From a phage: a stretch of 64,000 nucleotides of DNA. The translations under genes and the position numbers were made by a program. The stretch is taken from NCBI GenBank assembly GCA_036253055.1, contig GCA_036253055.1_4124.1; one strand, 5' to 3'. Every line of letters begins with the position of its first letter. Within the stretch, counting starts at the first letter, position 1. The notes below the pieces were generated by a model. It was not told the origin of the DNA, searched no databases, and was given only the letters and a program-made list of their open reading frames with translations. Positions 3,183 to 61,964 of this stretch are shown piece after piece.

Positions 3183-3399
3183 TTTATATCTCGCTCTTTT
3201 GGAGGTGGGCTGCACTATTGCCGCCCTACGAGATACATTATCTCAGTACTGATATACTTTGTCAATACTTTTTTTGAAATAGTTTTGAGTACTGGCATTA
3301 CATCCACCAGCAGATAGTTACTCACCGTTATTAACTATCTTATAGATACTTCTCTGCACCCTGTGGGCTAGTTTTTGTCTATGCGTATATAATAGCAAA

Positions 3400-3429
3400 G
3401 GGACTGACCGGAGTCAATCCCTTTTTTTT
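3400..3429 (-). terminator. hairpin plus T-run (intrinsic terminator-like), overlapping a minus-strand promoter -35
   Basis: GGGACTGAC-CGGA-GTCAATCCC then TTTTTTTT; same element at 5326-5347, 8188-8209, 12213-12232. Confidence 0.5.
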
Positions 3430-3440
3430 ATTCTTTTTTG

Positions 3441-5137: not shown

Positions 5138-5361
5138 CGTCTTGATTCCTTTTAGTACCAGGGAGAACCATTTCCCCCTCTCGATATAAAACATTATACG
5201 CTCATTGAGATAGTTTGCAAGTACTTTTTATAAAATAGTTTTCAGTACTGAATACTTATATAATAGATACACTTCCGCACCCTATGGGTCAGTGAGTTAT
5301 CTCTCAATGAATATATAATAGCAAAGGGACTGACTGGAGTCAATCCCTTTTTTAATCTTTT

Positions 5362-5946
5362 TTATCGTGTTATAGTTATCGCGTTAACATCACGTTTTTT
5401 ATAGTACTGATTCCAGATATTGCGGGTTAAACCGTAATCAAGTACTTTAATCAAGCCGTTGCGATCCTGGCCGATATTCTGTTTTCTGATATCTCTTATC
5501 GTTAGTGTGGATAATGTATCATCAACGTGATTGAGAGCATCAGCGAAATGGTGATGGCGTTCTACCGTATTACGTTTAATATTGTACTTTAACTCATTGC
5601 ACGCGTTTACATGCTTTACACTGCCTTTGCTTGCAGTACTCAAACGATCCATAACAATAAACAGATTATCAGGATCGCATAAATGCATATGCACTTTAGC
5701 AAAGTACTGTTTAAGGTGCGGACGGTCATAATCTAAAAAATTCCATACCTTACATTCAGTTTCATTTTGTTCTACACCCGCATCACAATTCGCGACCTTA
5801 ATCACTAACCGATCATTTAAAGCGAATACAATACGGGAAGAACCCGCACCGACGATCTCCAGTCCAGCTAACCGACAAGCTGAAAGGATCTCTTTGTTGG
5901 TTTCCATTGCATGAAGTGAACGGATGAATTTAGTATAGTTACGCAT
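5362..5946 (-). CDS. protein kinase-like protein (Ser/Thr kinase fold)
   Basis: Gly-rich loop GAGSSRIVFA, VIKV lysine, catalytic-loop-like DIRKQN, DYG (DFG-like); start moved to ATG 5944-5946 (SD AAGGAG); track start was TTG. Confidence 0.6.
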   Translation of the reverse strand: MRNYTKFIRSLHAMETNKEILSACRLAGLEIVGAGSSRIVFALNDRLVIKVANCDAGVEQNETECKVWNFLDYDRPHLKQYFAKVHMHLCDPDNLFIVMDRLSTASKGSVKHVNACNELKYNIKRNTVERHHHFADALNHVDDTLSTLTIRDIRKQNIGQDRNGLIKVLDYGLTRNIWNQYYKKRDVNAITITR

Positions 5947-6986: not shown

Positions 6987-7085
6987 GGTGTACATCCTAT
7001 TAGTTAAGTTAATTAGTACTACAAGTTAGAGTCTATTATAAAGTACTATCTGGGCAATGTCAAATAGTACTTTAAATGGATTCTA

Positions 7086-7409
7086 TTACATGTCTTTCTT
7101 ACGTTTTACATCGTAGTAACGAACTGTAATTTCTTTGTTGATCTCTTCCTCGATGCGGTGAATAACTTTTTCTTTCGGGTTGAAACCTATTACAGTTTCT
7201 TTAATGATCTCCAAGCCCGTGTATTCGCCTTGTGTACCGTAACCGTAAGTAAAGGTTTCATGTCCCAGGTCTTCCCAGCGGTCACCAATCAATGCAGACA
7301 CGTAGCATGAGTGGTAAGTATTGCCGTGGCTATCAGTCCACCGATTAACTTTAATGTCAAAGGAGGTTACAATTTTCAATTCGACTTTCTGGGTAAGGAT
7401 CATAGTCAT
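7086..7409 (-). CDS. hypothetical protein, paralog of 14147..14470
   Basis: Shares WTDSxGNTYHSC..FTYGY motif with 14147..14470. Confidence 0.55.
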   Translation of the reverse strand: MTMILTQKVELKIVTSFDIKVNRWTDSHGNTYHSCYVSALIGDRWEDLGHETFTYGYGTQGEYTGLEIIKETVIGFNPKEKVIHRIEEEINKEITVRYYDVKRKKDM

Positions 7410-7496
7410 TTTAATTTCTCTCTTTTTGTTAGGAGGGGAACCATTCCCCTCACTTGATGTAAACTATTATACAGTACTAAGATACTTTGTCAATAC

Positions 7497-7631
7497 TTAT
7501 TTGTTTTCTTTTCGTAATTTCTTTTCAGCTTCAACTACATTACGATTTGTGCAAACCACTTCATCGGATAAATCTAACTTCCAGCCAGCCAGGGGATTGG
7601 TTGCTTTTTTAGTGTTGTTTGCTGCTTTCAT
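7497..7631 (-). CDS. small basic protein (44 aa), paralog of 13042..13188
   Basis: Not in track (<60 aa); hand-translated MKAANNTKKATNPLAGW...; SD AAGGAAAC; promoter module upstream. Confidence 0.45.
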   Translation of the reverse strand: MKAANNTKKATNPLAGWKLDLSDEVVCTNRNVVEAEKKLRKENK

Positions 7632-7698
7632 GATGTTTCCTTATTAATTAAGATGTAAACTATTATACAGTACTAAAAACTATTGTCAAACTATTTTA

Positions 7699-7899
7699 TC
7701 AAATTGTTTCCCATTTCATGTTACCCGCTTTACGCTGTGCAACAGGAATAAACATGTTATTAATGTTACTAATATAACCGACCTGTAAGTCACGCTGTGA
7801 ACCATACGCCCGACTTGCTGCATTTTTAGCACCGCGTTCTGATTTATAAACGCCGCTGGATACTGTAAATCCTACTACACCGAAAGTAAAATGTTTCAT
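7699..7899 (-). CDS. hypothetical protein
   Basis: 66 aa; SD GAGGAA. Confidence 0.5.
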   Translation of the reverse strand: MKHFTFGVVGFTVSSGVYKSERGAKNAASRAYGSQRDLQVGYISNINNMFIPVAQRKAGNMKWETI

Positions 7900-8223
7900 T
7901 TTGTATTCCTCTTTGTGGTTGATGTAAGTATTATACTCGTTTACTTGGTATTGTCAAACTATTTTATCAGGGGAGGTTTTCGTATGTCTTACTCCTGGAC
8001 TACTTAACGGGGAGTTACTTGTTTCGTTCCCCGTCCTGATGTAAAACATTATACGCTTATCATGATACTTTGCAAGTACTTTTTAAAAAATAGTTTTCAG
8101 TACTTGATAGTACTAGCCACCAGCATATAATAGATACATTTATGCACCCTGTGGGTTAGATTGTTTCTGTGCATATATAATAGCAAAGGGACTGACCGGA
8201 GTCAATCCCTTTTTTAAATCTTT

Positions 8224-8373
8224 TTAAACTTGTTTTGGGTTGCGATATGTGATAGCGTTCGGGTACATTTGTTTAATGTTATTCCATGCCTGGTTAACAT
8301 TGTAACCACTTGATCGAATCAGTTGGTTACTACCGACACCTTGAAACACTACTTCAAATAAGAATTCTTTCAT
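8224..8373 (-). CDS. small hypothetical protein (49 aa)
   Basis: Not in track; hand-translated; SD GAGGTGA; ATGA overlap with 8370..8543. Confidence 0.4.
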   Translation of the reverse strand: MKEFLFEVVFQGVGSNQLIRSSGYNVNQAWNNIKQMYPNAITYRNPKQV

Positions 8374-8543
8374 GCTTTCACCTCGCTATCTGCTTTGCCT
8401 TTACGCCAGGCCGTTGCTAATTGTTCGCGTTGCCATAAGTCGAGTGATACGTAAAGTTTTGCATTATCACCCTTCGGATATTCGCCAGTAGTACCAATCC
8501 GATAAAACAGATCTTTCAGTACTGATAATTCTACTTGGATCAT
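8370..8543 (-). CDS. small hypothetical protein (57 aa)
   Basis: Not in track; SD AGGAG; stop overlaps next start. Confidence 0.45.
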   Translation of the reverse strand: MIQVELSVLKDLFYRIGTTGEYPKGDNAKLYVSLDLWQREQLATAWRKGKADSEVKA

Positions 8544-8632
8544 TGTATTACTCCTGATTGTGTTAGTACTTCTACGATGGCATGAATGATCATAAGTACA
8601 GCTAACACAACAATCATCGGATTCATTTGCAT
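8540..8632 (-). CDS. hydrophobic micro-protein (30 aa, single TM)
   Basis: Hand-translated MQMNPMIVVLAVLMIIHAIVEVL...; SD AGGAG 8 nt upstream; coupled to downstream gene. Confidence 0.35.
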   Translation of the reverse strand: MQMNPMIVVLAVLMIIHAIVEVLTQSGVIQ

Positions 8633-8649
8633 AAGCTGTACTCCTTCTA

Positions 8650-8862
8650 TTAATCTTTCAGCCAATGATCTTGAATGAATTTTTCACAGAATCCCTGTTT
8701 CATAGATTCTAACAGGCGTTCACGGTGAGCGGCGGCATATTGCTCAGTACTATGCGTTACGCCAGGTTGATAACGTGAAACACCGTCCGGTCCGATATAT
8801 TGAACATCCCACGGTTTTTCGTTAGTATCAGACCATTTACGAACGATTAGTTGACCTTGCAT
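8650..8862 (-). CDS. hypothetical protein
   Basis: 70 aa; SD GAGGAAA; promoter and hairpin 8880-8939. Confidence 0.55.
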   Translation of the reverse strand: MQGQLIVRKWSDTNEKPWDVQYIGPDGVSRYQPGVTHSTEQYAAAHRERLLESMKQGFCEKFIQDHWLKD

Positions 8863-8879
8863 GTTTCTTTCCTCTTAGT

Positions 8880-8899
8880 GGGGAGAATCATTTCTCCCC
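8880..8899 (-). promoter_or_regulatory. conserved 5'UTR hairpin (GGGGAGAA-loop-TTCTCCCC) between promoter and SD
   Basis: Perfect 8-bp inverted repeat; recurs with small variations downstream of most early promoters. Confidence 0.55.
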
Positions 8900-8911
8900 T
8901 TCATGTAAACT

Positions 8912-8939
8912 ATTATACAGTACTAGATTACATTGTCAA
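8912..8939 (-). promoter_or_regulatory. sigma70-like early promoter (TTGACA, 16 nt, TG-extended TATAAT)
   Basis: Minus strand TTGACA..CAGTACTGTATAAT; one of about 40 near-identical modules in the window. Confidence 0.6.
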
Positions 8940-8945
8940 TAGTTT

Positions 8946-9269
8946 TTATTCACCTTGTTTGAATTTAGTTTTCTCCATTGATTCCATGATTGCAACCAAT
9001 ACAGCATGGATCTCACTTAACGCGGCATCACTAAAAGCATTAATGAATAGGCAATCATTCTCGCGAATATTTTTAATGTACTTATCAGCAGTGGTTGCGA
9101 ATTCATTCAACGGCAGATCAAATGCTTTATCCCATAATGGATGGCGTAACTGTAACAGTACTGGATTATCACGGTCACCAGGTGAGAAAGTGCCTGTAAT
9201 GAAACATACACCAGGGATACTTTCGAATTGACAACGAACTTCTTTTGTGATAGTAGTATGAATATACAT
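8946..9269 (-). CDS. hypothetical protein
   Basis: 107 aa; SD GAGGA. Confidence 0.5.
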   Translation of the reverse strand: MYIHTTITKEVRCQFESIPGVCFITGTFSPGDRDNPVLLQLRHPLWDKAFDLPLNEFATTADKYIKNIRENDCLFINAFSDAALSEIHAVLVAIMESMEKTKFKQGE

Positions 9270-9296
9270 TTATTTTTATCCTCTATTAAATTAATA

Positions 9297-9485
9297 TTAC
9301 AGTTTATGAATCAATTCTTTATCTAAGCGATAGCGAACATTATTGATTGTAACTGCATTGTTTTTAATGCTACGCTGTACAGGTCCACCAGCAATAACAA
9401 ACGTTGCCTTATTGCCCCGAACGATGATAGCACTTCCAGGATTACCAAAATCATCTTGTACTAAAATACTTGATAAGTTTTGCAT
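9297..9485 (-). CDS. hypothetical protein
   Basis: 62 aa; SD AAGGAAAG; promoter and hairpin 9503-9561. Confidence 0.5.
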   Translation of the reverse strand: MQNLSSILVQDDFGNPGSAIIVRGNKATFVIAGGPVQRSIKNNAVTINNVRYRLDKELIHKL

Positions 9486-9533
9486 TTGTCTTTCCTTGTA
9501 GTGGGGAGAACTATTCTCCCCTTCATGTAAACT

Positions 9534-9561
9534 ATTATACAGTACTTAAAACTAAATGCAA
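9534..9561 (-). promoter_or_regulatory. sigma70-like early promoter (TTGCAT, 16 nt, TATAAT) for gene 9297..9485
   Basis: Minus strand TTGCAT-N16-TATAAT; UTR hairpin GGGGAGAACTATTCTCCCC at 9503-9521. Confidence 0.6.
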
Positions 9562-9564
9562 GTA

Positions 9565-9921
9565 CTAGGATAAAATCATTATAGGATATTCACAGTTAAT
9601 CAGTACTTCAAAACCAAAACTTTCATACCATTCTTTAAGATTAAACTCGTTATCTTCTCCCGTATCGCATTCTAAGATGATACAATCTGAATCATCGGCG
9701 GCATCAATAAAGGCATTCATTAATTCAGTACCTTCACCGTTACCGCGATTATCGGGATCAACATAAAGAGAATCAATAAACGCTACACGATCATAATCAA
9801 GATCCGGTGCAACAATGCCACGTTTAACAAACCAGTACTGCAATTGTGCTACTTTGCCTTGTACTTGATAGCCAGTGATCTCACCATTGTCTGTAGTACG
9901 CGTGATATGTTGTATACCCAT
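9565..9921 (-). CDS. GNAT-family N-acetyltransferase-like protein
   Basis: Motif-A-like DNRGNGEGTELMNAFIDAA; 118 aa; SD GAGGA. Confidence 0.5.
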   Translation of the reverse strand: MGIQHITRTTDNGEITGYQVQGKVAQLQYWFVKRGIVAPDLDYDRVAFIDSLYVDPDNRGNGEGTELMNAFIDAADDSDCIILECDTGEDNEFNLKEWYESFGFEVLINCEYPIMILS

Positions 9922-9984
9922 GATTTCAATCCTCAGTTAAGATATAAAATATTATACACTAACTAACAGCACTGTCAATACTTT

Positions 9985-10242
9985 TTATCTCATAGATCTA
10001 TGCCAACAATTACGGGGATTGCGTTTGAATATGCTATCATGATCAGCCTGGCAAGTGATGCAGTACTTACACCCCTTAACGGCCAGGCGGCGATTCTCAG
10101 GGATTTTATCGCCGCAGTCGAGGCAATGTATCAGTGATTCTATTTGTGCGTTAATTTGCGTTCTAGCGTGGTTTACAGCGGCCTGAATCACTGCGTTAAT
10201 CTCGTCTTGCTCGGCCCCGTCATTCGCGAATCCAACAGCCAT
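9985..10242 (-). CDS. TraR/DksA-family C4 zinc-finger protein
   Basis: CLDCGDKIPENRRLAVKGCKYCITCQ fits the TraR/DksA C4 zinc-finger pattern. Confidence 0.6.
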   Translation of the reverse strand: MAVGFANDGAEQDEINAVIQAAVNHARTQINAQIESLIHCLDCGDKIPENRRLAVKGCKYCITCQADHDSIFKRNPRNCWHRSMR

Positions 10243-10405
10243 TATTTTAACCTCATTATAAAAATACTATAGTACTGTAATGCTACAATAATACTACTAG
10301 TACTGATTTTATTCAAACCGTATGATACTACATATTCCCCAGCATTACCACGAATGGTAACGCCTTTGTACTTTCTATATAATTTCAACTACGTTTATTG
10401 CCTTT

Positions 10406-10476
10406 GATCAAGATTTGATCAGAATTATACGCCTTATGCTAAATTGATCCAGTACTTTTTTGATCATTTATTGATC
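10406..10476. promoter_or_regulatory. cluster of five TTGATC (GATC) sites in 71 bp
   Basis: GATC at 10406, 10417, 10446, 10462, 10473, each preceded by TT. Confidence 0.45.
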
Positions 10477-10571
10477 GATATTATATAGTTACATTTGTGC
10501 ACCCTATGGGTTAGTGACGTTCTCGTCTTGATGTAAGTATTATGCCAGTACTGGCATAATTTGTCAATAGA

Positions 10572-10769
10572 TTATTTTAACTTTTTTCTGTCATTGATTA
10601 ATGCTTTCAGTACTATACTAATGATCTGCAATGATTCATCAATGACTATAAAATTATTTTCTTTCATTAGATGATAGTTACCATTGATTGTATATTCTAA
10701 GGAGTACTGTTTACGTTTAATTTTTGATAATGTTTCTATTTGTTTTTGTACTGATTTCATGCTAATCAT
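10572..10769 (-). CDS. hypothetical protein
   Basis: 65 aa ORF. Confidence 0.45.
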   Translation of the reverse strand: MISMKSVQKQIETLSKIKRKQYSLEYTINGNYHLMKENNFIVIDESLQIISIVLKALINDRKKLK

Positions 10770-10874
10770 TGTTAAACGTCCTGTAACGCATTCTAACGAG
10801 TTAAACGGTTTAGTACTGGCATTGTATAGGGTAAAGGATTAAAGCCCACCAGCGTTAACCAGTGGGCTATAATC

Positions 10875-11018
10875 TTACATCTTGCGGATAATCTTAACAG
10901 TATCTTTCACCGATTTACCGTCTTGCTGACATTGTTCGATCATCGCGTATTGTTCTGCGGTCAGATCCTCGCCAGTTTTTGCCAGTACTGCGTCGATGAA
11001 TGAATCCAGTGCGATCAT
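10875..11018 (-). CDS. small hypothetical protein (47 aa)
   Basis: Not in track; hand-translated MIALDSFIDAVLAKTGEDL... Confidence 0.4.
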   Translation of the reverse strand: MIALDSFIDAVLAKTGEDLTAEQYAMIEQCQQDGKSVKDTVKIIRKM

Positions 11019-11117
11019 TTTGTTTCTCTCTTAGGTTAAGTTAACTACTGTTTATAAAACTTATTATACAGTACTATCAAACTATGTCAATATCTTTAAT
11101 AGTACTGGTAATATATT

Positions 11118-11297
11118 TTAGCGGTAGTCGTCGTATGCTTTATTCACCTGGCGAATGTAACTTTCAAAGGCTTCGTCTACCGTTTCATACTCCCGAACAT
11201 AATCACCATAGGAAACTACATACATCCCTTTTTGATCTTCAAACGTCATGATGATAGAATCCAGGCCGATGATTTCAGTTTTTGCGATAATAGCCAT
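11118..11297 (-). CDS. small hypothetical protein (59 aa)
   Basis: Not in track (59 aa); SD AAGGAA; hand-translated MAIIAKTEIIG... Confidence 0.45.
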   Translation of the reverse strand: MAIIAKTEIIGLDSIIMTFEDQKGMYVVSYGDYVREYETVDEAFESYIRQVNKAYDDYR

Positions 11298-11380
11298 TTT
11301 AGTATTCCTTAGTAGTGTAGTTGATAAAAGTTATTATGCCAGTACTATCAATCATTGTCAATAGTACTGTGATAATATTT

Positions 11381-11593
11381 TTAGTTAATGATAGTCAGTG
11401 TAAAATTGTAATCCCCTGCCTGGTATAGTACTTTGTCGCCGAATGTACCAACACGTTTCATATTGCAATAGATACCCATAACACTTTTTACATCTTTGAT
11501 ATTCCGAACGCCTGTGATATCCTTGTTGAAATTTTCATGTTCAGAAAATAAAACTTGTTTTGCATTTTTCAGTACAGTGCAGATATTAGCCAT
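11381..11593 (-). CDS. hypothetical protein
   Basis: 70 aa. Confidence 0.5.
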   Translation of the reverse strand: MANICTVLKNAKQVLFSEHENFNKDITGVRNIKDVKSVMGIYCNMKRVGTFGDKVLYQAGDYNFTLTIIN

Positions 11594-11686
11594 TTTGATT
11601 TCTCTCTGTTTGTGGGGAGAACTATTCTCCCCTTGATGTAACTTATTATACAGTACTATAATCTATTGTCAAACTATTTTTTAATA

Positions 11687-12028
11687 TTATTCAAAATCTT
11701 CTGGACCGGACTGATAATCATCTTCACCGTATGCACTTTCTAACTTCTCGCCAGTGTGATCATCAGTTAGTGAGTCATCCTCATAGTTCACGTCTACGCC
11801 TACAATGTAAAACTGGCTATCGTCTGGATCATTGAAATTAATTTTCTGAATGTTTACAATAACGGTATTGATGCCCAGGACACCGCCATCAGCAGTTACA
11901 AAGTACTGATATTTTTCACAACCGCCTGAATTGAAACCGTAATTAATTTCGGCCCGACCATCATTTAAACGCAGTGCCTGGGCGATGATTTCATTTTCAA
12001 AGTTAGATTGAGCAATTGAGATAGTCAT
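11687..12028 (-). CDS. highly acidic hypothetical protein (candidate DNA mimic)
   Basis: 113 aa; D/E-rich C-terminus DDSLTDDHTGEKLESAYGEDDYQSGPEDFE; SD AAGGAAAC. Confidence 0.5.
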   Translation of the reverse strand: MTISIAQSNFENEIIAQALRLNDGRAEINYGFNSGGCEKYQYFVTADGGVLGINTVIVNIQKINFNDPDDSQFYIVGVDVNYEDDSLTDDHTGEKLESAYGEDDYQSGPEDFE

Positions 12029-12238
12029 GATTTGTTTCCTTATTACCAGGGGAAACCGTTTCCCCTTTCGATGTAAAACATTATACGCTTATTGAGATAG
12101 TTTGCAAGTACTTTTTAAAAATAGTTTTCAGTACTCAAACATTATATAATAGATACACTTATGCACCCTGTGGGCTAGTGAGCTATCTCTCAATGAATAT
12201 ATAATAGCAAAATGGCTGACCGGAGTCAACCACTTTTT

Positions 12239-12382
12239 TCATTTATTTTTAGCTTTTAGAATCGCCGCCTTTCGCGTCATGCCTTGCTTGATGTATTCCT
12301 GTACTTTCGCTTTACGTGCATTCGCTTTATTTGCTTTCGTAAACGCCGAACAACTTTTATAATTTAAGCCTGTTGGATTCAT
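12239..12382 (-). CDS. small basic protein (47 aa)
   Basis: Not in track; K/A-rich; hand-translated. Confidence 0.35.
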   Translation of the reverse strand: MNPTGLNYKSCSAFTKANKANARKAKVQEYIKQGMTRKAAILKAKNK

Positions 12383-12472
12383 TTAAATCACCATAAAGAA
12401 TAGATAGGTTACTAACAATGCCGCGATCAATGCACCGACCAGGGCCGAACTATAGTAAGCTAATGATTTCAT
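12383..12472 (-). CDS. hydrophobic micro-protein (29 aa, single TM)
   Basis: Hand-translated MKSLAYYSSALVGALIAALLVTYLFFMVI; ATGA overlap with upstream gene. Confidence 0.3.
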   Translation of the reverse strand: MKSLAYYSSALVGALIAALLVTYLFFMVI

Positions 12473-12621
12473 TTTTTAGCCTGAAAGTAATGTTTAATTT
12501 GTGCGGCGGTCAGTGCACAATTACGCAGGAAGTTTTCTGTATAACTGCGGCGAGTACTGAAAGAGAATTGACCTTTGCCGTTACCGATAGTAACATCAAA
12601 CCGAGCGTTGTATTGTTTCAT
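12469..12621 (-). CDS. small hypothetical protein
   Basis: Start moved to ATG 12619-12621; track N-terminus is translated UTR hairpin. Confidence 0.45.
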   Translation of the reverse strand: MKQYNARFDVTIGNGKGQFSFSTRRSYTENFLRNCALTAAQIKHYFQAKK

Positions 12622-12707
12622 TTTGATTCTCCTGTTATTGGGGAGAACCATTTCTCCCCTCTATGTAAAACATTATACGCGTTTAAAAACTAATTGCAAG
12701 TATTATT

Positions 12708-12959
12708 TTAAACTTTGTATTTTAAACTTTGTGCGACTAATTTCGCACGGTCAATCATATTCTGCCATTTTTGGATCTCTTCTGGTAGAAAACGATATTC
12801 ACCAATTACAATAGTGATACACTGGTCAGCCTTGTCGATGTATGTGGTATCAATCTCTACTTGAACGGGTACACGTTCGCCGTACTCAGTCCCTGGGATA
12901 ATGCAATCATTATCATAAGTTACAGTAGTAGCAGTGTCTTTGATTAAAATTGTTTCCAT
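12708..12959 (-). CDS. hypothetical protein
   Basis: 83 aa; SD GAGGAAAG. Confidence 0.55.
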   Translation of the reverse strand: METILIKDTATTVTYDNDCIIPGTEYGERVPVQVEIDTTYIDKADQCITIVIGEYRFLPEEIQKWQNMIDRAKLVAQSLKYKV

Positions 12960-13041
12960 TATACTTTCCTCGTTAGGTGTAAGGGGAACGTTTTCCCCTT
13001 CATGTAAACTATTATACAGTACTAAAAACTAATTGCAAGTA

Positions 13042-13188
13042 CTATTTTTTAGATTTACGCAAACTTTCTACCATCTCAGGAGTAAGGCCAGGCGGGTAGG
13101 AAACCACTTCATCAACGAAACGTAAAGGGAATACCCCAGCGAAAGGTGAACGTGCTTTCTTAGTATTACTCTTTTTTGATGCTTTCAT
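13042..13188 (-). CDS. small basic protein (48 aa), paralog of 7497..7631
   Basis: Not in track; hand-translated MKASKKSNTKKARSPFAGV...; shares MKA..N.KKA..P.AG N-terminus with 7497..7631. Confidence 0.45.
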   Translation of the reverse strand: MKASKKSNTKKARSPFAGVFPLRFVDEVVSYPPGLTPEMVESLRKSKK

Positions 13189-13257
13189 TTCATATTCCTT
13201 AATTAGTGGGGAGAATCATTTCTCCCCTTCATGTAAAACATTATACGCGTTTAAAAA

Positions 13258-13467
13258 CTAATTGCAAGTACTATTTGAAAGTAAATGCTCATACGCTGCA
13301 TTAACTACGTTTTCAATAACCGACTGTACAGAAAGATCCCCCACGTCCTGGCTATAGTAGAAATCGCTTACAGTGGTGTCATCGTATGCAAATACTTTAC
13401 CAGGTACTGCATCAATCACATACATATTAACCTTTAAGATGTCGATCTTATCCTGTACAGTAAGCAT
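13258..13467 (-). CDS. hypothetical protein
   Basis: 69 aa; 5-nt gap from upstream gene. Confidence 0.5.
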   Translation of the reverse strand: MLTVQDKIDILKVNMYVIDAVPGKVFAYDDTTVSDFYYSQDVGDLSVQSVIENVVNAAYEHLLSNSTCN

Positions 13468-13472
13468 ATTAA

Positions 13473-13745
13473 TTAACCTTTTAAGTACTGGCTTAAGTAG
13501 TCTTGTTGATCTTCGGTGATTGCAGCCATCTTCCCTAGTACTGGATTGATGATATAATCCCCTGTAACGTCCTGTAACGCATTCTCAGGCGGTTTAACGG
13601 CTGGGGTAGCCATAGCCATTGCCTGGACTTGTTCGACGCTGTAACGCTCATAAAGGCGGCATTCTTCCGGTGTTAACATAGCATCAGTACGCTTCATCGG
13701 TTTAATGATGCTTTCGATCTCATTCAGTACTTGATTAACGTTCAT
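13473..13745 (-). CDS. hypothetical protein
   Basis: 90 aa; SD GGGGA. Confidence 0.5.
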   Translation of the reverse strand: MNVNQVLNEIESIIKPMKRTDAMLTPEECRLYERYSVEQVQAMAMATPAVKPPENALQDVTGDYIINPVLGKMAAITEDQQDYLSQYLKG

Positions 13746-13796
13746 GGTATAATCCCCAATATAAGCGGCCTAAATCGACCGCTAACGATGTTTTGA

Positions 13797-14066
13797 TTAA
13801 TAGGTGTATGGTTGACGCTCAAACAATGAATAGACGTTATACGCCCCGCTTATGGGCTTCGCTGGTAAATCAATTTTATATTGTTCACGCTTAAAGATAA
13901 TAAAACGGCAATTGTTTTTAACATCAAAATTGATTGAACGTTCCAGGAGTTTACCATCGTGCACAAATACAAGATAACCGCTTGGTACTTGTTTTGTAGA
14001 ACTGGTTGCAACCATAGACCGACGAACATGTGTACCTGCATCGATTAAAGTACTGATATTTTTCAT
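13797..14066 (-). CDS. hypothetical protein
   Basis: 89 aa; SD AGAGGA. Confidence 0.5.
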   Translation of the reverse strand: MKNISTLIDAGTHVRRSMVATSSTKQVPSGYLVFVHDGKLLERSINFDVKNNCRFIIFKREQYKIDLPAKPISGAYNVYSLFERQPYTY

Positions 14067-20054: not shown

Positions 20055-20417
20055 CGTTTTAATCTCTTTTAAAGTGTAGCGGGAAGTGTTCCCGCTCTCG
20101 ATGTAAAACATTCTACACCTTTCCCAATACTTTGCAAGTACTTTCTACAAATACTTTTAAAATAGTTTTCTTTCTATATAGGGGAACTATCTTTCAGTAC
20201 TGCAACCATCCAGGGGAACTATCTTTCTATATAGTAGTACTATGATTCAGTACTGAATCAATCCACCAAATCATCCCGATACCCCGTAAAACGGCCTCAG
20301 ACGCATTCTAACGCATTAATACACCTAAGCTATACATTTGCACCATTCCAATCATTCCAGGGCTTTACAGGCCGTTTAAACGCGTTAAATTATTTTCAAT
20401 TATTTTGTTTTTAGCTA

Positions 20418-20445
20418 TTGACTCAGTACTAAAAAAGCGTATAAT
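20418..20445 (+). promoter_or_regulatory. plus-strand sigma70 consensus promoter (TTGACT, 16 nt, TATAAT) in ORF-free region
   Basis: Perfect -10 TATAAT 20440-20445; no ORF downstream. Confidence 0.45.
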
Positions 20446-20880
20446 TACTACATAGACGCGAGAAAGCGGATACCCCAGGGGGTGGGAAGATCCGTCCAAA
20501 ATTCAAGATATAAAAAAAGGATACACTCCCGCACCCTAGCAGGTTAACGCACTTTCTCAGTACTGAATTATAGTACCATAGTCCGGCCCAGGATGGCAAG
20601 CAAATTAATTAAAACTTTTTTCATCCAGGGTATTGCTTTATTTTTCCAGTACTGTATAATAGTTCCATCAAGTCGAGAAAGACTCAAGCCCACCGGGTGC
20701 ATAGTTACGCCCAAAATTCAGTACTGAAAAAATTTTTAAAAATATCCGTCCAGGCCGTTGACATTGCCCCCAGTTTATAAGATAATGATTCCAGATTCAG
20801 AAAAATCTAACTCCAGATACTGCGGGGAAACTATCCCCACGCGGTAGGGGAACTATTGGAAAAAACAAAATAAAATTTTG

Positions 20881-21030
20881 ATTTAGCCGTCTATACTTCC
20901 AGACGTGTAACCATCTAGCCGTTTAGCCGTCCAAACGTCTAGCAATCCAGCCATCCAGAAATCTAGCCGTTTAGCCGTCTAGATGGATAGCCATCTTTAC
21001 TTCCAGACTTCTGGAGGGCTAGACATATCT
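20881..21030. repeat. iteron-like direct repeats (TAGCCGT units; 17-mer CTAGCCGTTTAGCCGTC twice)
   Basis: TAGCCGT at 20884, 20916, 20924, 20964, 20972; ACTTCCAGAC twice; in ORF-free region. Confidence 0.5.
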
Positions 21031-21701
21031 ACGTCCAAAATCCACCCAGGGTAACTACGCCCAAAATCCGTCAGTACTATACCATAGATCTATCTTTTGA
21101 AAGGGAGTATTCAGTACTGTCATCATAGCCCTCACTATGTTACCCTAGGAGGATGAAGACTATCATGTAGTACTGAATACTGTTAGAGGGAATCCACCAG
21201 CACAAGCTGGTGGCATAATGCTTTAGATTAAAATCAGTACTGACACCATTCTGTTAATATCAGTACTGTTATTACGATTTTCATATGAGGTTCAAAAAGA
21301 TGTACCACCACAGGAGGAACTATCTTTTCTGTACTGTCTCACGACAGGAGGTAGAGTAAATGAATTGTTCGCAGCAACTCATCACCCTATGTAGAACATT
21401 ATACAGTACTGAATCATAATGTCAATAGCTTTCTTTCATTATTCAGTACTGAAATCGTATAATCTGTATCGCTACAAAACTCATTATATCCCACAAATCC
21501 TATATGTCCCAACGTAAATTTCAACTTTCGAAGATCCAACTTTTATTTCATAGGTACTCCAAAATTTTTAGGATCGAGATTTAGGATGGAGTACTAACCA
21601 ACTTTTTGCTGGAGCCTCAAGGGGTAATTGAATTTTACCCCGAAGGGTAAAAGGGTAATTGAAATTAAGGTGAAAGTAATAATTCAGTACTAATCATTGC
21701 G

Positions 21702-21928
21702 TGATTACTTTTGATTACATTTGATGTAATTTGCAAAATGGAAAAGGAGCTTGGAAACTACAAAGTACGGCAGACTTCCTCTGCCTACTTAGTGGCATAT
21801 CAGTACTGCTACGTTCTTGATTAAACGTGAACATTCCTGTACTCTAGTACTCACTACTGATCACTACAGTGATTATAAATGATTACTTAAATGTTTATAT
21901 ATGATTACTTATGACTACCTATGATTAC
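21702..21928. repeat. cluster of TGATTAC direct repeats
   Basis: TGATTAC at about 21702, 21713, 21880, 21902, 21922, plus variant ATGACTAC. Confidence 0.4.
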
Positions 21929-21968
21929 GGGGTTTAGCCTGGGGAGAATCCTAGTGATCGCATTTGTC

Positions 21969-22008
21969 CAGGCTGAATTTTAACATATGCAACATATGTT
22001 AAAGCCTG
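21969..22008. repeat. large imperfect palindrome centred on TTAACATATG-CAA-CATATGTTAA
   Basis: Perfect 10-bp arms 21980-21989 and 21993-22002, flanked by CAGGCT/AGCCTG. Confidence 0.55.
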
Positions 22009-22044
22009 TATAATGCTTCCACTACGGAGCTTCCCCTAGCTATA

Positions 22045-24622: not shown

Positions 24623-24802
24623 TTATATAGATGCCAGGGCGAGGATTTCCCTGTAGGGATTATCTTGTGTTAGTACAGCATAAATGCAGCTATTGAGATT
24701 AATATTTTTAGTACTTTTTGTTCCTAGGTTGTAGTAATCAACGAAGGTGTCGTACATGAAACGGTCTTTTATGGTTATACGTTCTATATAGAATTGTTGC
24801 AT
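24623..24802 (-). CDS. small protein, paralog family B (59 aa)
   Basis: Not in track (<60 aa); hand-translated MQQFYIERITIKD...YREILALASI; SD AAGGAA. Confidence 0.45.
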   Translation of the reverse strand: MQQFYIERITIKDRFMYDTFVDYYNLGTKSTKNINLNSCIYAVLTQDNPYREILALASI

Positions 24803-24810
24803 AGTATTCC

Positions 24811-24993
24811 TTAAATAGCGATTAGTTTCATTACTTCTCTGTATGTGTACTTTTCGTTTTGTGCATCTCTTGTGACGACATATAGGAAGGTGTGTTTATC
24901 TTTTTTGTTCCCGCAATTGTAGAAAATATTGAACTTATTGAAGTTGAATCTTTCGGCGTGTTGTAGTTTAGTTAAATAGAATTCTATGTTCAT
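24811..24993 (-). CDS. small protein, paralog family B (subfamily 2)
   Basis: MNIEFYLTKL...YTYREVMKLIAI. Confidence 0.5.
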   Translation of the reverse strand: MNIEFYLTKLQHAERFNFNKFNIFYNCGNKKDKHTFLYVVTRDAQNEKYTYREVMKLIAI

Positions 24994-25001
24994 TTTCTTC
25001 C

Positions 25002-25187
25002 TTACATTTCAATAAGTTTAAGTACTGCTCGGTACGTGTACTTAGTTGTTAGTGCTTCTTTAATAGAAATACAGAAGTAATGTTGTTTGTCTCTTATACT
25101 GCCGCGTTTGTAGTACCACACATGGGAGTTGTGACTGTACTTGTCTCTGTCGGATAGTTGTTGGTAGTAGTAGCTTATATGATTCAT
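25002..25187 (-). CDS. small protein, paralog family B (subfamily 2)
   Basis: ...YTYRAVLKLIEM. Confidence 0.5.
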   Translation of the reverse strand: MNHISYYYQQLSDRDKYSHNSHVWYYKRGSIRDKQHYFCISIKEALTTKYTYRAVLKLIEM

Positions 25188-25239
25188 TATAATGTAATTA
25201 GCCTTACTATATTAAAGTACTCGGTCCCTGGTGTACCTT

Positions 25240-25434
25240 TTAGAACTTAAAGATGAGGTTCAGGATAGAGCGGTACTTAGTTGCAGGGAACGTATGTTCT
25301 ATTGCATCACGTGTCTCCATCCTGAAATCGTAATTGTAATATAGATTATTCTTTCTCATAGGTCGTGCTAAAGAGAATGATAGCTGTTCTTGCTTGTGTA
25401 GTTTACTACAATAGAAATCTTTATGATTATTCAT
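25240..25434 (-). CDS. small protein, paralog family B (subfamily 2)
   Basis: MNNHKDFYCSKL... Confidence 0.45.
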   Translation of the reverse strand: MNNHKDFYCSKLHKQEQLSFSLARPMRKNNLYYNYDFRMETRDAIEHTFPATKYRSILNLIFKF

Positions 25435-25636
25435 AGAAATATATTAGTCCTATTAAACCTGAGTACTGAATATTTTTGTTATTGCATTCGATTGCTTCTA
25501 GAGTACTACGTATACAATTATTAAAGCAATCTCTGGCGTGTGGTGTATCTATACTTAAAGGTGATACACTCCTTAGAAACAATTGTTCTTCGTTGCTAAG
25601 GTATTTGGTGTAGAATTCTTTATGTTCAGTATTCAT
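25427..25636 (-). CDS. small protein, paralog family B
   Basis: MNTEHKEFYTKYL... Confidence 0.45.
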   Translation of the reverse strand: MNTEHKEFYTKYLSNEEQLFLRSVSPLSIDTPHARDCFNNCIRSTLEAIECNNKNIQYSGLIGLIYFYE

Positions 25637-25637
25637 A

Positions 25638-25847
25638 TTAGTACTCGATTAATAGTGTTAAGATGAAATAGTACTGCATAGACTCGTTACCTTCAAGGAA
25701 ATTCCTTATGAGGTTATTTCTGACTGAGTTAAGCAGAAGTGCCGAACGTTTTGCATTTGCAAGTATAATTTGTTGATGCTCTATGCTATTCTGTTCACCT
25801 TTTGACAGAGCACATAGGTAGTACTGCATAATTTGTTCTTGGGTCAT
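25638..25847 (-). CDS. small protein, paralog family B (divergent)
   Basis: 69 aa; ...YYFILTLLIEY. Confidence 0.4.
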   Translation of the reverse strand: MTQEQIMQYYLCALSKGEQNSIEHQQIILANAKRSALLLNSVRNNLIRNFLEGNESMQYYFILTLLIEY

Positions 25848-26089
25848 ATAGATGCCAGTACTAAAAGGTTAATGAATCGTTTACTTTCGTCAGGGTTTTG
25901 AAGTCCCTCAAAGATGTCCTCTATAAAGCAATTCAACATAAGTGCATTTGTTGGGGTAGTACTTTTTTTGAGGGTATTGATTGCACAGAATTTTGAGAGG
26001 AAGAATGCGAAGTCTTCTGCGTTCATGTAGCTCATATAGTTCTTAGTACTTTGGCTAAGTGCTTGGTAGTGATCTATTACATTGTTCAT
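25844..26089 (-). CDS. small hypothetical protein (first gene of array)
   Basis: 81 aa; 4-nt overlap with downstream gene. Confidence 0.4.
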   Translation of the reverse strand: MNNVIDHYQALSQSTKNYMSYMNAEDFAFFLSKFCAINTLKKSTTPTNALMLNCFIEDIFEGLQNPDESKRFINLLVLASI

Positions 26090-46158: not shown

Positions 46159-46353
46159 CTAATCCTCGCTGAAGACAACAATAAGGAATGACACGAATAA
46201 TGCCGCATAACAAGGAGCTATCTTCATGTACCACGGGACTTCATAATACCATGTACCCAATTCATCCCACGAAAAGAGTATACTCAAACCGAAGCCGATT
46301 AGCGATAGTACAATAAAAGAAATCCAGAAACGCGTTGAATATACTAATAACAT
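46159..46353 (-). CDS. small membrane protein
   Basis: 64 aa hydrophobic; SD AAAGGAAC. Confidence 0.45.
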   Translation of the reverse strand: MLLVYSTRFWISFIVLSLIGFGLSILFSWDELGTWYYEVPWYMKIAPCYAALFVSFLIVVFSED

Positions 46354-46391
46354 GTTATGTTCCTTTGTGTAACCGAAGTCAACCCTTTCCT

Positions 46392-46907
46392 TTAATAATT
46401 ATTCATTTCATCTTTGATTTGTTCTTCAATTTCGTCGAACATATCAGTACTAGATTCGTTCTTACTACTTACGTTCTGCATATCTTTAACGTACTGTGGA
46501 CATTCAACATCAGTAAACTTATACCACGTAGGCTTCATCTGGAGCTTCTCAATCAAACGATCACGAGACATTTTAATCTCTGACTCCGTTGGTACGTAGT
46601 CATTACAAAACTCAGCAGGGAAGCCGCTAATGTCGTTTACTTCAGTGTTTTGAATCTTCATACCACGACGCAGACATTCGTTGACAATATCAATATGACG
46701 CTTCTGTAAGTACAATAACTTGTCGTAAAAGAATGTCACATGACCTGAACCTAACAGATAAGTACTATTAATTTTGAAATCACGTACACGCTTACGTGCT
46801 TGAACGTGTTTTTGTACAGCACCAAATACACGTGGGAGTTCACGATATTCAGCCATCAGATGTTGGTCAGCAAGTTCTTTAACGTGTACTAAGTTAATGC
46901 GTGTCAT
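46392..46907 (-). CDS. denV: pyrimidine-dimer DNA glycosylase (T4 endonuclease V-like) with C-terminal extension
   Basis: N-terminus [34 protein letters not shown]...RVRDFKI...[10 protein letters not shown] closely matches T4 DenV as recalled; about 30 extra acidic C-terminal residues. Confidence 0.85.
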
Positions 46908-46974
46908 GTATTCATCCTCTCGTCTTGATGAAATAATTATAGCAAAAAGGGCTGACCGAAGTCAACCCTTTTCT

Positions 46975-47244
46975 TTATTCAATGATCCCCAACTTCACAA
47001 TCTCATACCCGTCCAGATAGCCGTAGGAACACTCAGGTGTTTCATAAGATGAACCATCATGGATGCCCTGGCATTGACTTTTGGAATTCTCAAGCAATCG
47101 TTGCAGTACTGATACGTCATCAAGAACGTAATACAAGTTAGCATATAGGTCAGTTACAATACAGTACTCCAACATATCAAATGTATCAATCGAAATTTCA
47201 ACCTTAGCAAATCGTTTCTTTTCTTTATTATACAGTGCGTACAT
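46975..47244 (-). CDS. hypothetical protein
   Basis: Start moved to ATG 47242-47244 (SD GGAGA); track start was TTG. Confidence 0.4.
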   Translation of the reverse strand: MYALYNKEKKRFAKVEISIDTFDMLEYCIVTDLYANLYYVLDDVSVLQRLLENSKSQCQGIHDGSSYETPECSYGYLDGYEIVKLGIIE

Positions 47245-47245
47245 A

Positions 47246-47617
47246 TTAATCTCCATAATCAAGTTTAACTAACTTACCACCCAGATACCCAAAGTTTTCT
47301 GGCTTCGCATCTGAATAGAAGAAGTCAGTACTCAACTCTGATTTAGATGCTAATGCACACAACTCCACCCAAAATAAACCCCTATGTTGCACTGGCTTAC
47401 AACGTTTCTGTACAGTTACTAGTCCAGTACATGATGACCACAACGTAGGACAGATACTACTATCACTACGATTGGAGTACTGCATCCACGAACGTTCATT
47501 GAGGTTAGCTATCATCCCTGTTAAGAATAGCTTCCAACTTTTAAAGGTTGGAATCTTGATAGCATATTCCCCAATGAGGATAACAGTTCGTGTTGCACCT
47601 TTCAAATCTATATTCAT
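47246..47617 (-). CDS. minimal or truncated protein kinase-like protein
   Basis: YAIKIP (VAIK-like), DAKPENFG (HRDLKPEN-like), KLDYGD (DFG-like) then stop; start uncertain (ATG 47615-47617 or GTG 47662). Confidence 0.35.
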   Translation of the reverse strand: MNIDLKGATRTVILIGEYAIKIPTFKSWKLFLTGMIANLNERSWMQYSNRSDSSICPTLWSSCTGLVTVQKRCKPVQHRGLFWVELCALASKSELSTDFFYSDAKPENFGYLGGKLVKLDYGD

Positions 47618-47625
47618 ATTTTTAA

Positions 47626-47877
47626 TTAGAAGAACACAAACCAAGTCCAGAACAAATTCCACATTACAAATAAAGACATAGTGGTTTTATGTACAATATC
47701 AGCAGTACTGGTCCATCCTCCACCGTGTCCTATTCCATTTATGAATAGAACTAAGAACAAGATACCATTTACTACAATAGTACATACTAAGTACACAAAT
47801 ACATTCCATGCAAGTCCAGGGGATACTAAAGTAAATGGTAAAACTATTAGTAGTATTAGAACTAATAATATTTTCAT
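47626..47877 (-). CDS. small membrane protein
   Basis: 83 aa hydrophobic; SD GAGG. Confidence 0.45.
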   Translation of the reverse strand: MKILLVLILLIVLPFTLVSPGLAWNVFVYLVCTIVVNGILFLVLFINGIGHGGGWTSTADIVHKTTMSLFVMWNLFWTWFVFF

Positions 47878-47916
47878 TTATCGCCTCACTTAATTAACGT
47901 GACATATCACGTAATA

Positions 47917-48093
47917 TTAGTACGAATCAGATTCCCAGTACTCGATTGCTTCTTTCAGCAATTCTTTAGCACGTTGTTTTGCAATGCGAGCGGGAAACTG
48001 ATATGTGTACATTAACTGACGCTTCACTTCATTCAGTGAAAGCTGTTCATGGTACAGTGCATCCATCAGTCGATTACGAGTACGTAGTTTCAT
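47917..48093 (-). CDS. small hypothetical protein (58 aa)
   Basis: Not in track; hand-translated MKLRTRNRLMDALYHEQLSLNEV...; SD AAGGATAA. Confidence 0.4.
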   Translation of the reverse strand: MKLRTRNRLMDALYHEQLSLNEVKRQLMYTYQFPARIAKQRAKELLKEAIEYWESDSY

Positions 48094-48104
48094 ATAAGTT
48101 ATCC

Positions 48105-49370: not shown

Positions 49371-49379
49371 ATATGTCTC

Positions 49380-49724: not shown

Positions 49725-49725
49725 A

Positions 49726-50415: not shown

Positions 50416-50417
50416 TT

Positions 50418-54046: not shown

Positions 54047-54133
54047 TTGATTTCTCTCCATAGATTTCATTTTTTTCTCTATGTCTATATTTATAGTATA
54101 AAGAAAAGGCTGACCGAAGTCAACCTTATTTTG

Positions 54134-54247
54134 TTACTTAGATTGTTCTTGTGCAGGTGGATTTACTTTTTGATCCACTACATAGAATACACCACCAACC
54201 AGTACTGCGGCGATGAGTGCAGCAACTACAAATTTTAAACCTTGCAT
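54134..54247 (-). CDS. hydrophobic micro-protein (37 aa, single TM)
   Basis: Hand-translated MQGLKFVVAALIAAVLVGGVFYVVDQK...; SD GAGGT. Confidence 0.35.
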   Translation of the reverse strand: MQGLKFVVAALIAAVLVGGVFYVVDQKVNPPAQEQSK

Positions 54248-54315
54248 ATATGATACCTCAGTTATATTGAGAAGTTATGATACAACAAAGGGCTGACCTT
54301 AGTCAACCCTTTTTA

Positions 54316-61605: not shown

Positions 61606-61752
61606 TTAGAATAATTTATTAATAATAATAGCACCCAAACCAAGTACTGCAATAATTGCAGATACCCACATTACCGCGTTCACTGCACCTGTGAGTTCTT
61701 TATCAAACTCTCGGCACTTCTTGCGGTAATCTTCCCACTCTTTGTTATTCAC
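61606..61752 (-). CDS. small protein with C-terminal TM helix (48 aa), GTG start
   Basis: Not in track; SD AGGAG 7 nt upstream of GTG 61750-61752, which overlaps the upstream TGA (GTGA coupling). Confidence 0.35.
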   Translation of the reverse strand: MNNKEWEDYRKKCREFDKELTGAVNAVMWVSAIIAVLGLGAIIINKLF

Positions 61753-61964
61753 ACTACCACTCCTAATAGGTCGGTAGCTTTCTTGAGAACTACATCAATC
61801 GTTTCCAGTACTGCACCTTTGTGTTCAATTGATACAATATTATTATAAGTATCAAGGTCCAAGTACTCCATATATTCTGTTTTGAATACACGAACTTCAG
61901 TACTGGTGATTTTAATATCACAACCTTTATCCCAAATAACCTGCATCATTTCATTGGTAGTCAT
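61749..61964 (-). CDS. hypothetical protein
   Basis: 71 aa; SD AAGGT. Confidence 0.5.
   Translation of the reverse strand: MTTNEMMQVIWDKGCDIKITSTEVRVFKTEYMEYLDLDTYNNIVSIEHKGAVLETIDVVLKKATDLLGVVV

Follow-up and report, generated by a model that had tools for sequence, protein, structure and literature searches.

Thirteen very short open reading frames (ORFs) in the 64,000-nucleotide stretch of phage DNA analysed here (the window) are very probably real accessory genes that code for small proteins in a jumbo coliphage of the genus Asteriusvirus (121Q/PBECO4 type). All of them, referred to below as c01 to c13, lie exactly where the original prediction, which was called by hand, had placed them; all are on the minus strand, and 12 start with ATG and one with GTG. 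The central reading of that prediction, that these are protein-coding genes, stands: the strength of the Shine-Dalgarno (SD) sequence, the integrity of the frame, and the codon-position bias together with dN/dS all discriminate the candidates from control ORFs.

The window was assigned by megablast to the genus Asteriusvirus, the PBECO4/121Q group of jumbo coliphages, whose genomes are about 350 kb long. From 44000 to 64000 the window matches phage 121Q at 99.8% identity (NC_025447.1, 92245-112244, reverse strand). Positions 7000-14000 are a mosaic that is about 92% identical to ELP-22, G17, JP4 and others, and phage 121Q covers only 64% of it. Coding is on the minus strand from 1 to 26 kb and from 40 to 64 kb. 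The orthologous regions used in the tests were taken from about 14 related genomes; CMSTMSU, which is an UNVERIFIED record, was left out when frame integrity was scored, since many of its genes carry frameshifts.

The length of the ORFs alone is not significant because about 10% of the ATGs in shuffled sequence stay open for at least 30 codons (P = 0.096, 0.028 and 0.009 for at least 30, 45 and 58 open codons after an ATG in the shuffled window), and the window contains several hundred ORFs of 29-59 amino acids. Good SD sites, which had been claimed for the set, were found in 11 of the 13 candidates (anti-SD duplex of -5 kcal/mol or lower), whereas 5% of 274 shadow ORFs reach this value. c02 and c10 do not, and start by stop-start coupling instead. 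Such coupling had also been claimed and is present at several junctions. A 60-aa gene overlaps c02 at an ATGA, c02 and c10 are adjacent at a TAAATG, c01, c07 and c06 are joined by two successive ATGA overlaps, and a 71-aa gene overlaps c04 at a GTGA.

The orthologous copies of the candidates are intact in 77 of 81 instances by a strict same-stop test, compared with 61% for the 179 control ORFs. The remaining four instances are all c10 alleles, in which indels keep the frame and the C-terminus differs slightly; on inspection they too are intact. The variable alignment columns of the candidates fall mostly in the third codon position (39, 26 and 120 for positions 1, 2 and 3), whereas those of the 179 control ORFs do not (737, 1083 and 853). 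The pooled dN/dS, calculated by the Nei-Gojobori method, is 0.16 for the candidates versus 0.88 for the 179 control ORFs, and the single-gene values span 0.00-0.26 for all of the candidates except c12 (0.48). The reading frames are thus conserved in relatives, the point on which the original prediction had offered to be refuted, as intact copies and low dN/dS values are found across the approximately 14 genomes.

The prediction was wrong in calling the ORFs unannotated, since one or more public records list each of the 13 as a 'hypothetical protein'. That description holds record by record only; for example, c02 has no annotation in 121Q or G17, nor has c01 in PBECO4. The counterparts in 121Q are gp298 (c01), gp299 (c07), gp300 (c06), gp291 (c08), gp290 (c09), gp287 (c10), gp200 (c03), gp179 (c04) and gp213 (c13). 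Elsewhere they are G17_00034 (c11), G17_00062 (c12), ELP22_0033 (c02) and NCBI MED6826955.1/WP_311008166.1 (c05). The annotated orthologs in 121Q and its relatives are 72-100% identical in amino acid sequence and have the same lengths, neighbours and junctions; nothing substantive differs beyond the combination of cassettes, which is the window's own. In sum, the finding holds but is an ordinary one: real genes that public records already list as hypothetical proteins.

Eight of the proteins have full-length PHROG matches with E values of 1e-21 to 1e-45, namely c03, c04, c06, c07, c08, c09, c10 and c13 (families 35037, 38271, 37188, 10572, 34103, 9374, 29913 and 38182, respectively), and all eight families are of unknown function. 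The match of c02 is weak (phrog_32088, E 0.005), and no PHROG match was found for c01, c05, c11 and c12. Pfam and PADLOC gave nothing above threshold for any of the 13 candidates or their neighbours, Rfam and tRNA scans of the window found nothing, and scans of IMG/VR and JGI metagenomes found few relatives. The literature searched contained no transcriptomic, Ribo-seq or small-protein proteomic data on Asteriusvirus, and the mass spectrometry table of the phAPEC6 virion contains larger proteins only.

The interest of the finding is low because the genes are already in the records and no function emerged, and for the public knowledge of this phage the genes themselves add nothing. Inhibitors used in host takeover and factors that exclude superinfecting phage are known to be found among small phage proteins, a group often lost to length cut-offs. 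The hand-called list is accurate, and so it can be used as a validation of the hand-calling method. The added value is modest and consists of the quantified purifying selection, the description of c01 as an optional cassette whose place a promoter module can take, and the flagging of some doubtful 102-nt ORFs.

The peptide c01 (8540..8632, minus strand) has 30 amino acids and a single predicted transmembrane (TM) segment (MQMNPMIVVLAVLMIIHAIVEVLTQSGVIQ), and it is identical to 121Q gp298. It belongs to a four-gene unit on the minus strand with the order promoter, leader hairpin, 70-aa gene, c01, c07, c06 and terminator. The promoter is a perfect sigma-70 sequence (TTGACA-16-TATAAT, 8939-8912) and is followed by a 5'-leader hairpin of GGGGAGAA and TTCTCCCC (8899-8880, -13.9 kcal/mol) and by the 70-aa first gene (8650..8862; 121Q gp297, phrog_13428). 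The start codon of c01 is an ATG with the SD sequence AAGGAG 8 nt upstream. A longer 41-aa reading from a TTG at 8665 was rejected; in G17 and 121Q a stop codon interrupts the extension, and the database entries are all 30 amino acids. The stop codon of c01 overlaps the start of c07 (ATGA), and the SD sequence of c07 lies inside the last codons of c01 (TCAGGAGTAATA).

The next gene, c07 (8370..8543, minus strand; 121Q gp299, phrog_10572), codes for 57 amino acids and is coupled to both c01 and c06. All 12 copies are intact with a dN/dS of 0.26. A confident AlphaFold2 model of the protein has three helices (pLDDT 83), and a Foldseek search with this model against PDB and BFVD returned its own orthologs and found no other structural relative. 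The last gene of the operon, c06 (8224..8373, minus strand; 121Q gp300, phrog_37188), codes for a basic protein of 49 amino acids and is also intact in 12 of 12 copies (dN/dS 0.11). The terminator hairpin that follows on the minus strand (8185..8212) is a composite, as it has a -35-like TTGACT in the stem and a TATTAT 17 nt downstream.

The 30-aa c01 ORF is intact in eight genomes. Its dN/dS is 0.14-0.16 among close orthologs and 0.08 for codons 1-24, values that have low statistical power for c01 alone because the close orthologs differ at only 7-8 variable sites. Conservation of the C-terminal SGVI is partly an RNA-level constraint, because its codons, TCAGGAGTAATA, are the SD sequence of c07. 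A 26-aa allele (MQMNPLIMLLAVLILAQALIEIGVLK) occurs in an approximately 357-kb contig labelled E. coli; it is 71% identical in nucleotide sequence, keeps the ATGA coupling, and has only hydrophobic-for-hydrophobic substitutions. A HMMER search of 1.84 billion proteins with a c01 profile found its own family and one credible distant homolog, a 29-aa metagenomic peptide (MQMNPFIVVIAIMMAVMAVLEYLSKAGVI); a 753-aa match in the same search was spurious. The three peptides have MQMNP, a hydrophobic core and Glu21 in common. These diverged 26-aa and 29-aa relatives support c01 as a real peptide.

The c01 slot itself displays two alternative states. In TH47, ECO103, WPEC5, CMSTMSU, ENA metagenome contig L049 and three JGI contigs, c01 is replaced by an 89-bp cassette that consists of a promoter with -35 and -10 (TATAAT) boxes, a hairpin (GGGGAAtagTTCCCC) and an SD sequence. 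The JGI metagenome contigs, L051-L053, have this promoter cassette in the c01 slot, yet their c07 protein is identical to that of the window. Because the slot is dimorphic even where c07 is identical, c01 is an accessory, optional gene, and its recombination does not depend on that of the neighbouring genes. Given its absence from TH47, ECO103, WPEC5, CMSTMSU and several metagenome contigs, c01 is also dispensable.

A rival reading is that c01, and perhaps also c02, serves only to couple translation: translating it would bring ribosomes to the overlapping start of the next gene and unmask the SD sequence of that gene, in which case its own amino acid sequence would be irrelevant. The ATGA overlaps on both sides of c01 and the position of the c07 SD sequence within the last codons of c01 fit this explanation, as do the absence of an SD sequence of its own from c02 and the fact that the second allele swaps the whole ORF for a promoter and SD cassette that would serve c07 expression equally. 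However, codons 1-24 of c01 lie outside the SD sequence and have the dN/dS of 0.08 given above, and MQMNP, a hydrophobic core and Glu21 are retained both in the alleles with 71% nucleotide identity and in the independent 29-aa homolog. Furthermore, the c02 protein is nearly invariant in nine genomes (of 11 variable sites, 7 are third codon positions), and a pure coupling ORF has no need of a transmembrane helix. We consider the coupling explanation improbable and favor c01 and c02 as genes whose products matter.

Three TM peptides, c01, c02 and c03, had been predicted and all three are borne out; a fourth, c04, has a C-terminal TM segment that had gone unmentioned. The best 19-mer Kyte-Doolittle means are 2.59-2.75 for c01-c04 and no more than 1.45 for the other nine proteins. 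Thus c01-c04 are predicted to be single-pass TM micro-proteins, each with one hydrophobic segment of about 19 residues. The c01 peptide of the window contains neither Lys nor Arg, and c02 has one Lys, at position 2. The second of these, c02 (12383..12472, minus strand), is a peptide of 29 amino acids (MKSLAYYSSALVGALIAALLVTYLFFMVI) with the TM segment at residues 11-29. It is ATGA-coupled to the 60-aa first gene of its operon (12469..12651, minus strand; phrog_7119), which has its promoter at 12699-12672 and its terminator at 12236-12209 on the same strand. All nine copies of c02 are intact, the dN/dS is 0.11, and the gene is annotated in ELP-22, JP4, WPEC5 and SD-15.

The 37-aa c03 (54134..54247, minus strand; 121Q gp200, phrog_35037) is a stand-alone cassette placed between two virion-structural genes. 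Upstream, on the minus strand, is a composite hairpin/promoter (54277..54314; AGGGTTGACTAAGGTCAGCCCT, then TATCAT), and downstream is a composite terminator/promoter hairpin (54095..54127; AAGGTTGACTTCGGTCAGCCTT and a T-tract, then TATACT). c03 is nearly invariant in close relatives and, with one variable site, its dN/dS has low power. The slot varies between relatives; ph0011 has no c03, and JNE01 holds a different gene of 294 nt. The ortholog in vB_Ec-M-J is 59% identical, also has 37 amino acids, and is annotated as a 'membrane protein'; it adjoins genes annotated 'immunity to superinfection'.

The gene with the GTG start, c04 (61606..61752, minus strand; 121Q gp179, phrog_38271), codes for 48 amino acids and is GTGA-coupled to the 71-aa gene upstream (61749..61964, minus strand). 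The GTG had been called correctly: it is kept in seven genomes, and it is the right start because codons 1-27, which lie upstream of the first internal Met, have a dN/dS of 0.07.

Small single-pass membrane proteins include AcrZ, MgtS, MgrB and KdpF of E. coli and the superinfection-exclusion proteins Imm and Sp of phage T4. c01-c04 are like this class in having 30-50 residues and one TM helix, and the presence in the c03 slot of vB_Ec-M-J of genes annotated 'immunity to superinfection' recalls T4 Imm/Sp; however, no sequence similarity was found between c01-c04 and AcrZ, MgtS, MgrB, KdpF or Imm/Sp. By analogy with these proteins, the four TM micro-proteins may insert in the host inner membrane, where they might act on host membrane proteins, by binding or modulating them, or keep out superinfecting phage. 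The soluble small proteins, again by analogy, may be host-takeover factors.

Type I toxins and small holins or antiholins are also of similar size and hydrophobicity (29-37 amino acids, one TM), and this resemblance would allow the TM micro-ORFs to be toxin-like or holin-like peptides that permeabilise the membrane (type I toxins or lysis timing). A promoter on the plus strand that lies downstream of the c01 operon (8104-8131, 11/12 match) could be taken in the same direction. However, this promoter faces the hairpin with a T6 tract at 8185-8218, and because of that hairpin a plus-strand transcript should end before c06, c07 and c01. In addition, no endolysin or spanin families were detected among the immediate neighbours, c01 and c02 are in early-type sigma-70 units outside any lysis cassette, and the PADLOC defence and toxin models had no match. 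We consider a toxin or holin role slightly less probable still than the coupling role, and action on host membrane proteins or on superinfecting phage would be the more plausible role for c01-c04.

The other nine proteins had been described as small and basic. Five of them are (c05, c06, c10, c11 and c13), whereas c08 and c09 are acidic (pI 4.7 and 4.3, respectively) and c07 and c12 are near neutral. The candidates had also been thought to fill gaps inside operons. This is so for eight of the 13, but c03, c05, c08, c09 and c11 are single-gene units with their own promoters. One of these, c05 (7497..7631, minus strand; 44 amino acids, basic), lies between perfect promoters at 7689-7662 and 7493-7466. 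No DNA or tblastn homolog of c05 was found in 50,697 phage records. A large protein collection contains c05 unchanged, as a 'hypothetical protein [Escherichia coli]' of 44 amino acids on contigs of about 350 kb, and an 86%-identical variant, also of 44 amino acids, in which the frame survives compensating indels. The ORF is intact in three variant loci. Along its whole length, the c05 protein shares 44% identity with c11 (13042..13188, minus strand; 48 amino acids, basic), and c05 is a diverged paralog of c11. The latter has its own promoter at 13267-13240 and is intact in four of four copies, with a dN/dS of 0.16. The c05 slot also differs between relatives; the window has c05 without a 91-aa gene that is directly upstream of c05 in contigs L047-L049 and that occupies the c05 slot in JP4.

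The acidic c08 (10875..11018, minus strand; 47 amino acids; 121Q gp291, phrog_34103) has its own perfect promoter at 11090-11063 and is intact in nine of nine copies (dN/dS 0.03). The acidic c09 (11118..11297, minus strand; 59 amino acids; 121Q gp290, phrog_9374) has its own promoter at 11361-11333 and is intact in eight of eight (dN/dS 0.06). The other three genes are in larger units. c10 (12239..12382, minus strand; 121Q gp287, phrog_29913) codes for a very basic protein of 47 amino acids with a pI of 10.5. c12 (24623..24802, minus strand; 59 amino acids; G17_00062) is the last of seven tandem paralogs (24623-26089) of 59-81 amino acids each, with a promoter at 26141, and its dN/dS of 0.48 is relaxed. 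c13 (47917..48093, minus strand; 58 amino acids, basic; 121Q gp213, phrog_38182) is within a long polycistronic unit, and all six copies are intact (dN/dS 0.12).

The promoters and stem-loops that accompany these genes are repeated elements. Sites of the type TTGACA-N16-18-TATAAT that match at 11 or more of 12 positions number 37 on the minus strand (16 perfect and 21 at 11/12) and five on the plus strand, none of them perfect. Between 6900 and 13400 there are 43 promoter-like sites, versus 24 +/- 5.7 in shuffles. About one third of the sites have, just past the -10 box, a G-run/C-run leader hairpin of the GGGGAGAA..TTCTCCCC type (-12 to -15 kcal/mol). The second type of cassette is a TTGACTNNGGTCA hairpin followed by a T-tract and a -10-like box. 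It occurs 11 times, on the minus strand only, when 0.06 would be expected; its hairpin overlaps the -35 box, and two pairs of compensatory base changes are present among four copies.

These cassettes resemble a known system. The PeSLs (promoter-early stem-loops) of T4-type phages consist of a sigma-70 consensus promoter with a stem-loop that either overlaps the -35 box or follows the -10 box (PMC2839356). They are found in hyperplastic regions full of small ORFans and mediate modular shuffling (Arbiol et al. 2010, PMC2839356; Comeau et al. 2014, PMC4122927). Five positional subclasses have been published, and both types in the window, with the stem-loop after the -10 box and with the stem-loop overlapping the -35 box, are among them. 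As in the T4-type phages, the window cassettes combine a consensus sigma-70 promoter and a G-run/C-run stem-loop, followed by an SD sequence and a start codon, they form dense arrays between small genes of unknown function, and genes are present, absent or replaced at them between close relatives. Unlike the T4-type PeSLs, they belong to the Asteriusvirus jumbo lineage rather than to Tevenvirinae, and they have no sequence homology to T4-type PeSLs. The likeness is one of design and putative function, not homology.

Breakpoints between relatives fall at cassettes in the three slots that were examined. The c01 slot holds either the ORF or the promoter cassette; in the c05 slot, DNA matches to relatives cover only the flanking promoter cassettes; and the c03 slot, which is bracketed by the two composite hairpins, varies in ph0011, JNE01 and vB_Ec-M-J. 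All three behave as the PeSL modular-shuffling model predicts. From the anatomy of the sequence, the small genes at 7-14 kb would be early genes read by the host sigma-70 RNA polymerase, their consensus promoters would be packaged with stem-loops as in T4-type PeSL cassettes, and the repeated cassettes would be recombination points where small genes are gained, lost and swapped. Such recombination would explain why the c01 slot has either a 30-aa ORF or an 89-bp cassette, as well as the differences in the c03 and c05 slots.

One could go further and propose that the early region of Asteriusvirus has a PeSL-like shuffling system with two cassette types, one of promoter and leader hairpin and the other of the TTGACTNNGGTCA terminator/promoter hairpin and a repeated non-coding element of about 120 nt, and that the c01 family (MQMNP, TM helix, Glu21) is an early micro-protein specific to this lineage, directed at a host protein of the inner membrane and interchangeable, through recombination at the cassettes, with a bare promoter module. 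We offer this combined proposal tentatively, as something possible but rather doubtful in its entirety. No paper on such cassettes in Asteriusvirus was found, and the word 'promoter' is absent from the Sharanji and phAPEC6 papers. If true, a modular-shuffling system of this kind would be undescribed for the Asteriusvirus lineage.

A screen of the gaps between long ORFs indicated that the gap ORFs that behave like genes are the ones on the hand-called list; the greedy long-ORF set masked c01, c02 and c05 in this screen, and these three were tested separately. Three 102-nt ORFs that are annotated in some relatives (12128..12229, 5242..5343 and 8097..8186) were rejected, as they have dN/dS values of 0.5-1.6, broken copies and no SD sequence. 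Some of the 102-nt ORFs annotated in relatives over the repeated element are therefore probably not genes. That the 13 candidates are likewise chance open frames in AT-rich intergenic spacers, and their annotations in relatives gene-caller artefacts, might be argued from these spurious neighbours and from the roughly 10% of ATGs in shuffled sequence that precede a 30-codon open frame, but the explanation has next to no probability and is refuted for the set as a whole by three independent discriminators, which set the candidates apart from about 180-270 control ORFs, and by the length and architecture preserved in diverged orthologs. Outside the hand-called list, there is one possible extra gene at 10242..10388, which corresponds to 121Q gp293.

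One further small gene is likely to exist that was missing from the original prediction of 13 micro-ORFs. This 48-aa ORF on the minus strand (10242..10388) starts immediately after the DksA-like gene, and its counterpart in the related phage 121Q is gp293 (147 nt). In a comparison limited to three relatives, its variable sites are distributed 2/2/10 over codon positions 1, 2 and 3, with a dN/dS of 0.18. The 59-aa ORF at 24623..24802, one residue below the 60-aa cut-off of that prediction, is the shortest of seven tandem paralogs (59-81 aa) that occupy 24623-26089 on the minus strand, with a single perfect promoter upstream at 26141. All seven have the C-terminal motif Y-x-Y-R-x-[VI]-L-x-L-I. 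Directly downstream of the 58-aa ORF at 47917..48093 is an 83-aa protein (47626..47877, minus strand), which is very hydrophobic, has the appearance of a multi-TM protein and has no Pfam match.

In one related record, CMSTMSU (MH494197.1, flagged UNVERIFIED; our loci L033 and L037), frameshifts interrupt many of the small genes that are conserved elsewhere, and annotation is sparse. Sequencing or assembly errors have probably affected this record, which is unfit for tests of ORF integrity.

A hairpin containing TTGACTNNGGTCA, which combines a putative terminator and promoter, is present 11 times in the window as compared to 0.06 expected, and every copy is on the minus strand (3417, 8205, 12229, 43515, 45683, 46965, 51460, 52546, 54123, 54306 and 57547). 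A -35-like TTGACT lies within the stem and is followed by a T-tract and then by a -10-like box at a spacing of 17-18 nt.

A conserved non-coding element of about 120 nt, placed immediately after the composite hairpin, is repeated four times (8085-8225, 12110-12250, 5225-5365 and 3300-3440) and has the invariant blocks TATAGATAC, GCACCCTGTGGG and ATATATAATAGCAAAGGGACTGACCGGAGTCAATCCCTTTTTT when read on the plus strand. The element has no Rfam match, and the 102-nt ORFs spanning it that are annotated in some relatives do not behave like genes. At 8104-8131 a plus-strand promoter (11/12 match) is directed into the composite hairpin; because a T6 tract accompanies this hairpin on the plus strand as well, a short convergent RNA could possibly be made.

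Compared with 121Q, the window is a mosaic: the two are 99.8% identical over the 20 kb from 44000 to 64000, but in the early region (7000-14000) identity falls to about 93% and coverage is 64%. Such a pattern would fit an exchange of cassettes that takes place mainly in the early region. The gene for the 30-aa single-TM peptide (8540..8632, minus strand) is present twice in phage G17 (G17_00022 and G17_00635), which suggests that this region is located in the G17 terminal repeat.

The slot between two virion-structural genes (window 54070-54320; loci L040, L041 and L043) also varies in content among the phages. The 37-aa single-TM peptide gene (54134..54247, minus strand) is alone there in the window, 121Q and G17, and is accompanied in vB_Ec-M-J by two additional genes, one labelled 'immunity to superinfection'. 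The slot is empty in ph0011, and JNE01 has a different 294-nt gene there.

Finally, a region of about 1.9 kb (20112-22044) is conserved at 91-95% across 42 Asteriusvirus records and is mostly unannotated; searches of it for ORFs of at least 60 aa, tRNAs and Rfam matches found none. Possible roles for it are those of an origin, a terminal-repeat boundary or a regulatory region. The palindrome CAGTACTG occurs in it more than 12 times, in both orientations, and an array with an 8-bp period extends from 20888 to 21040.
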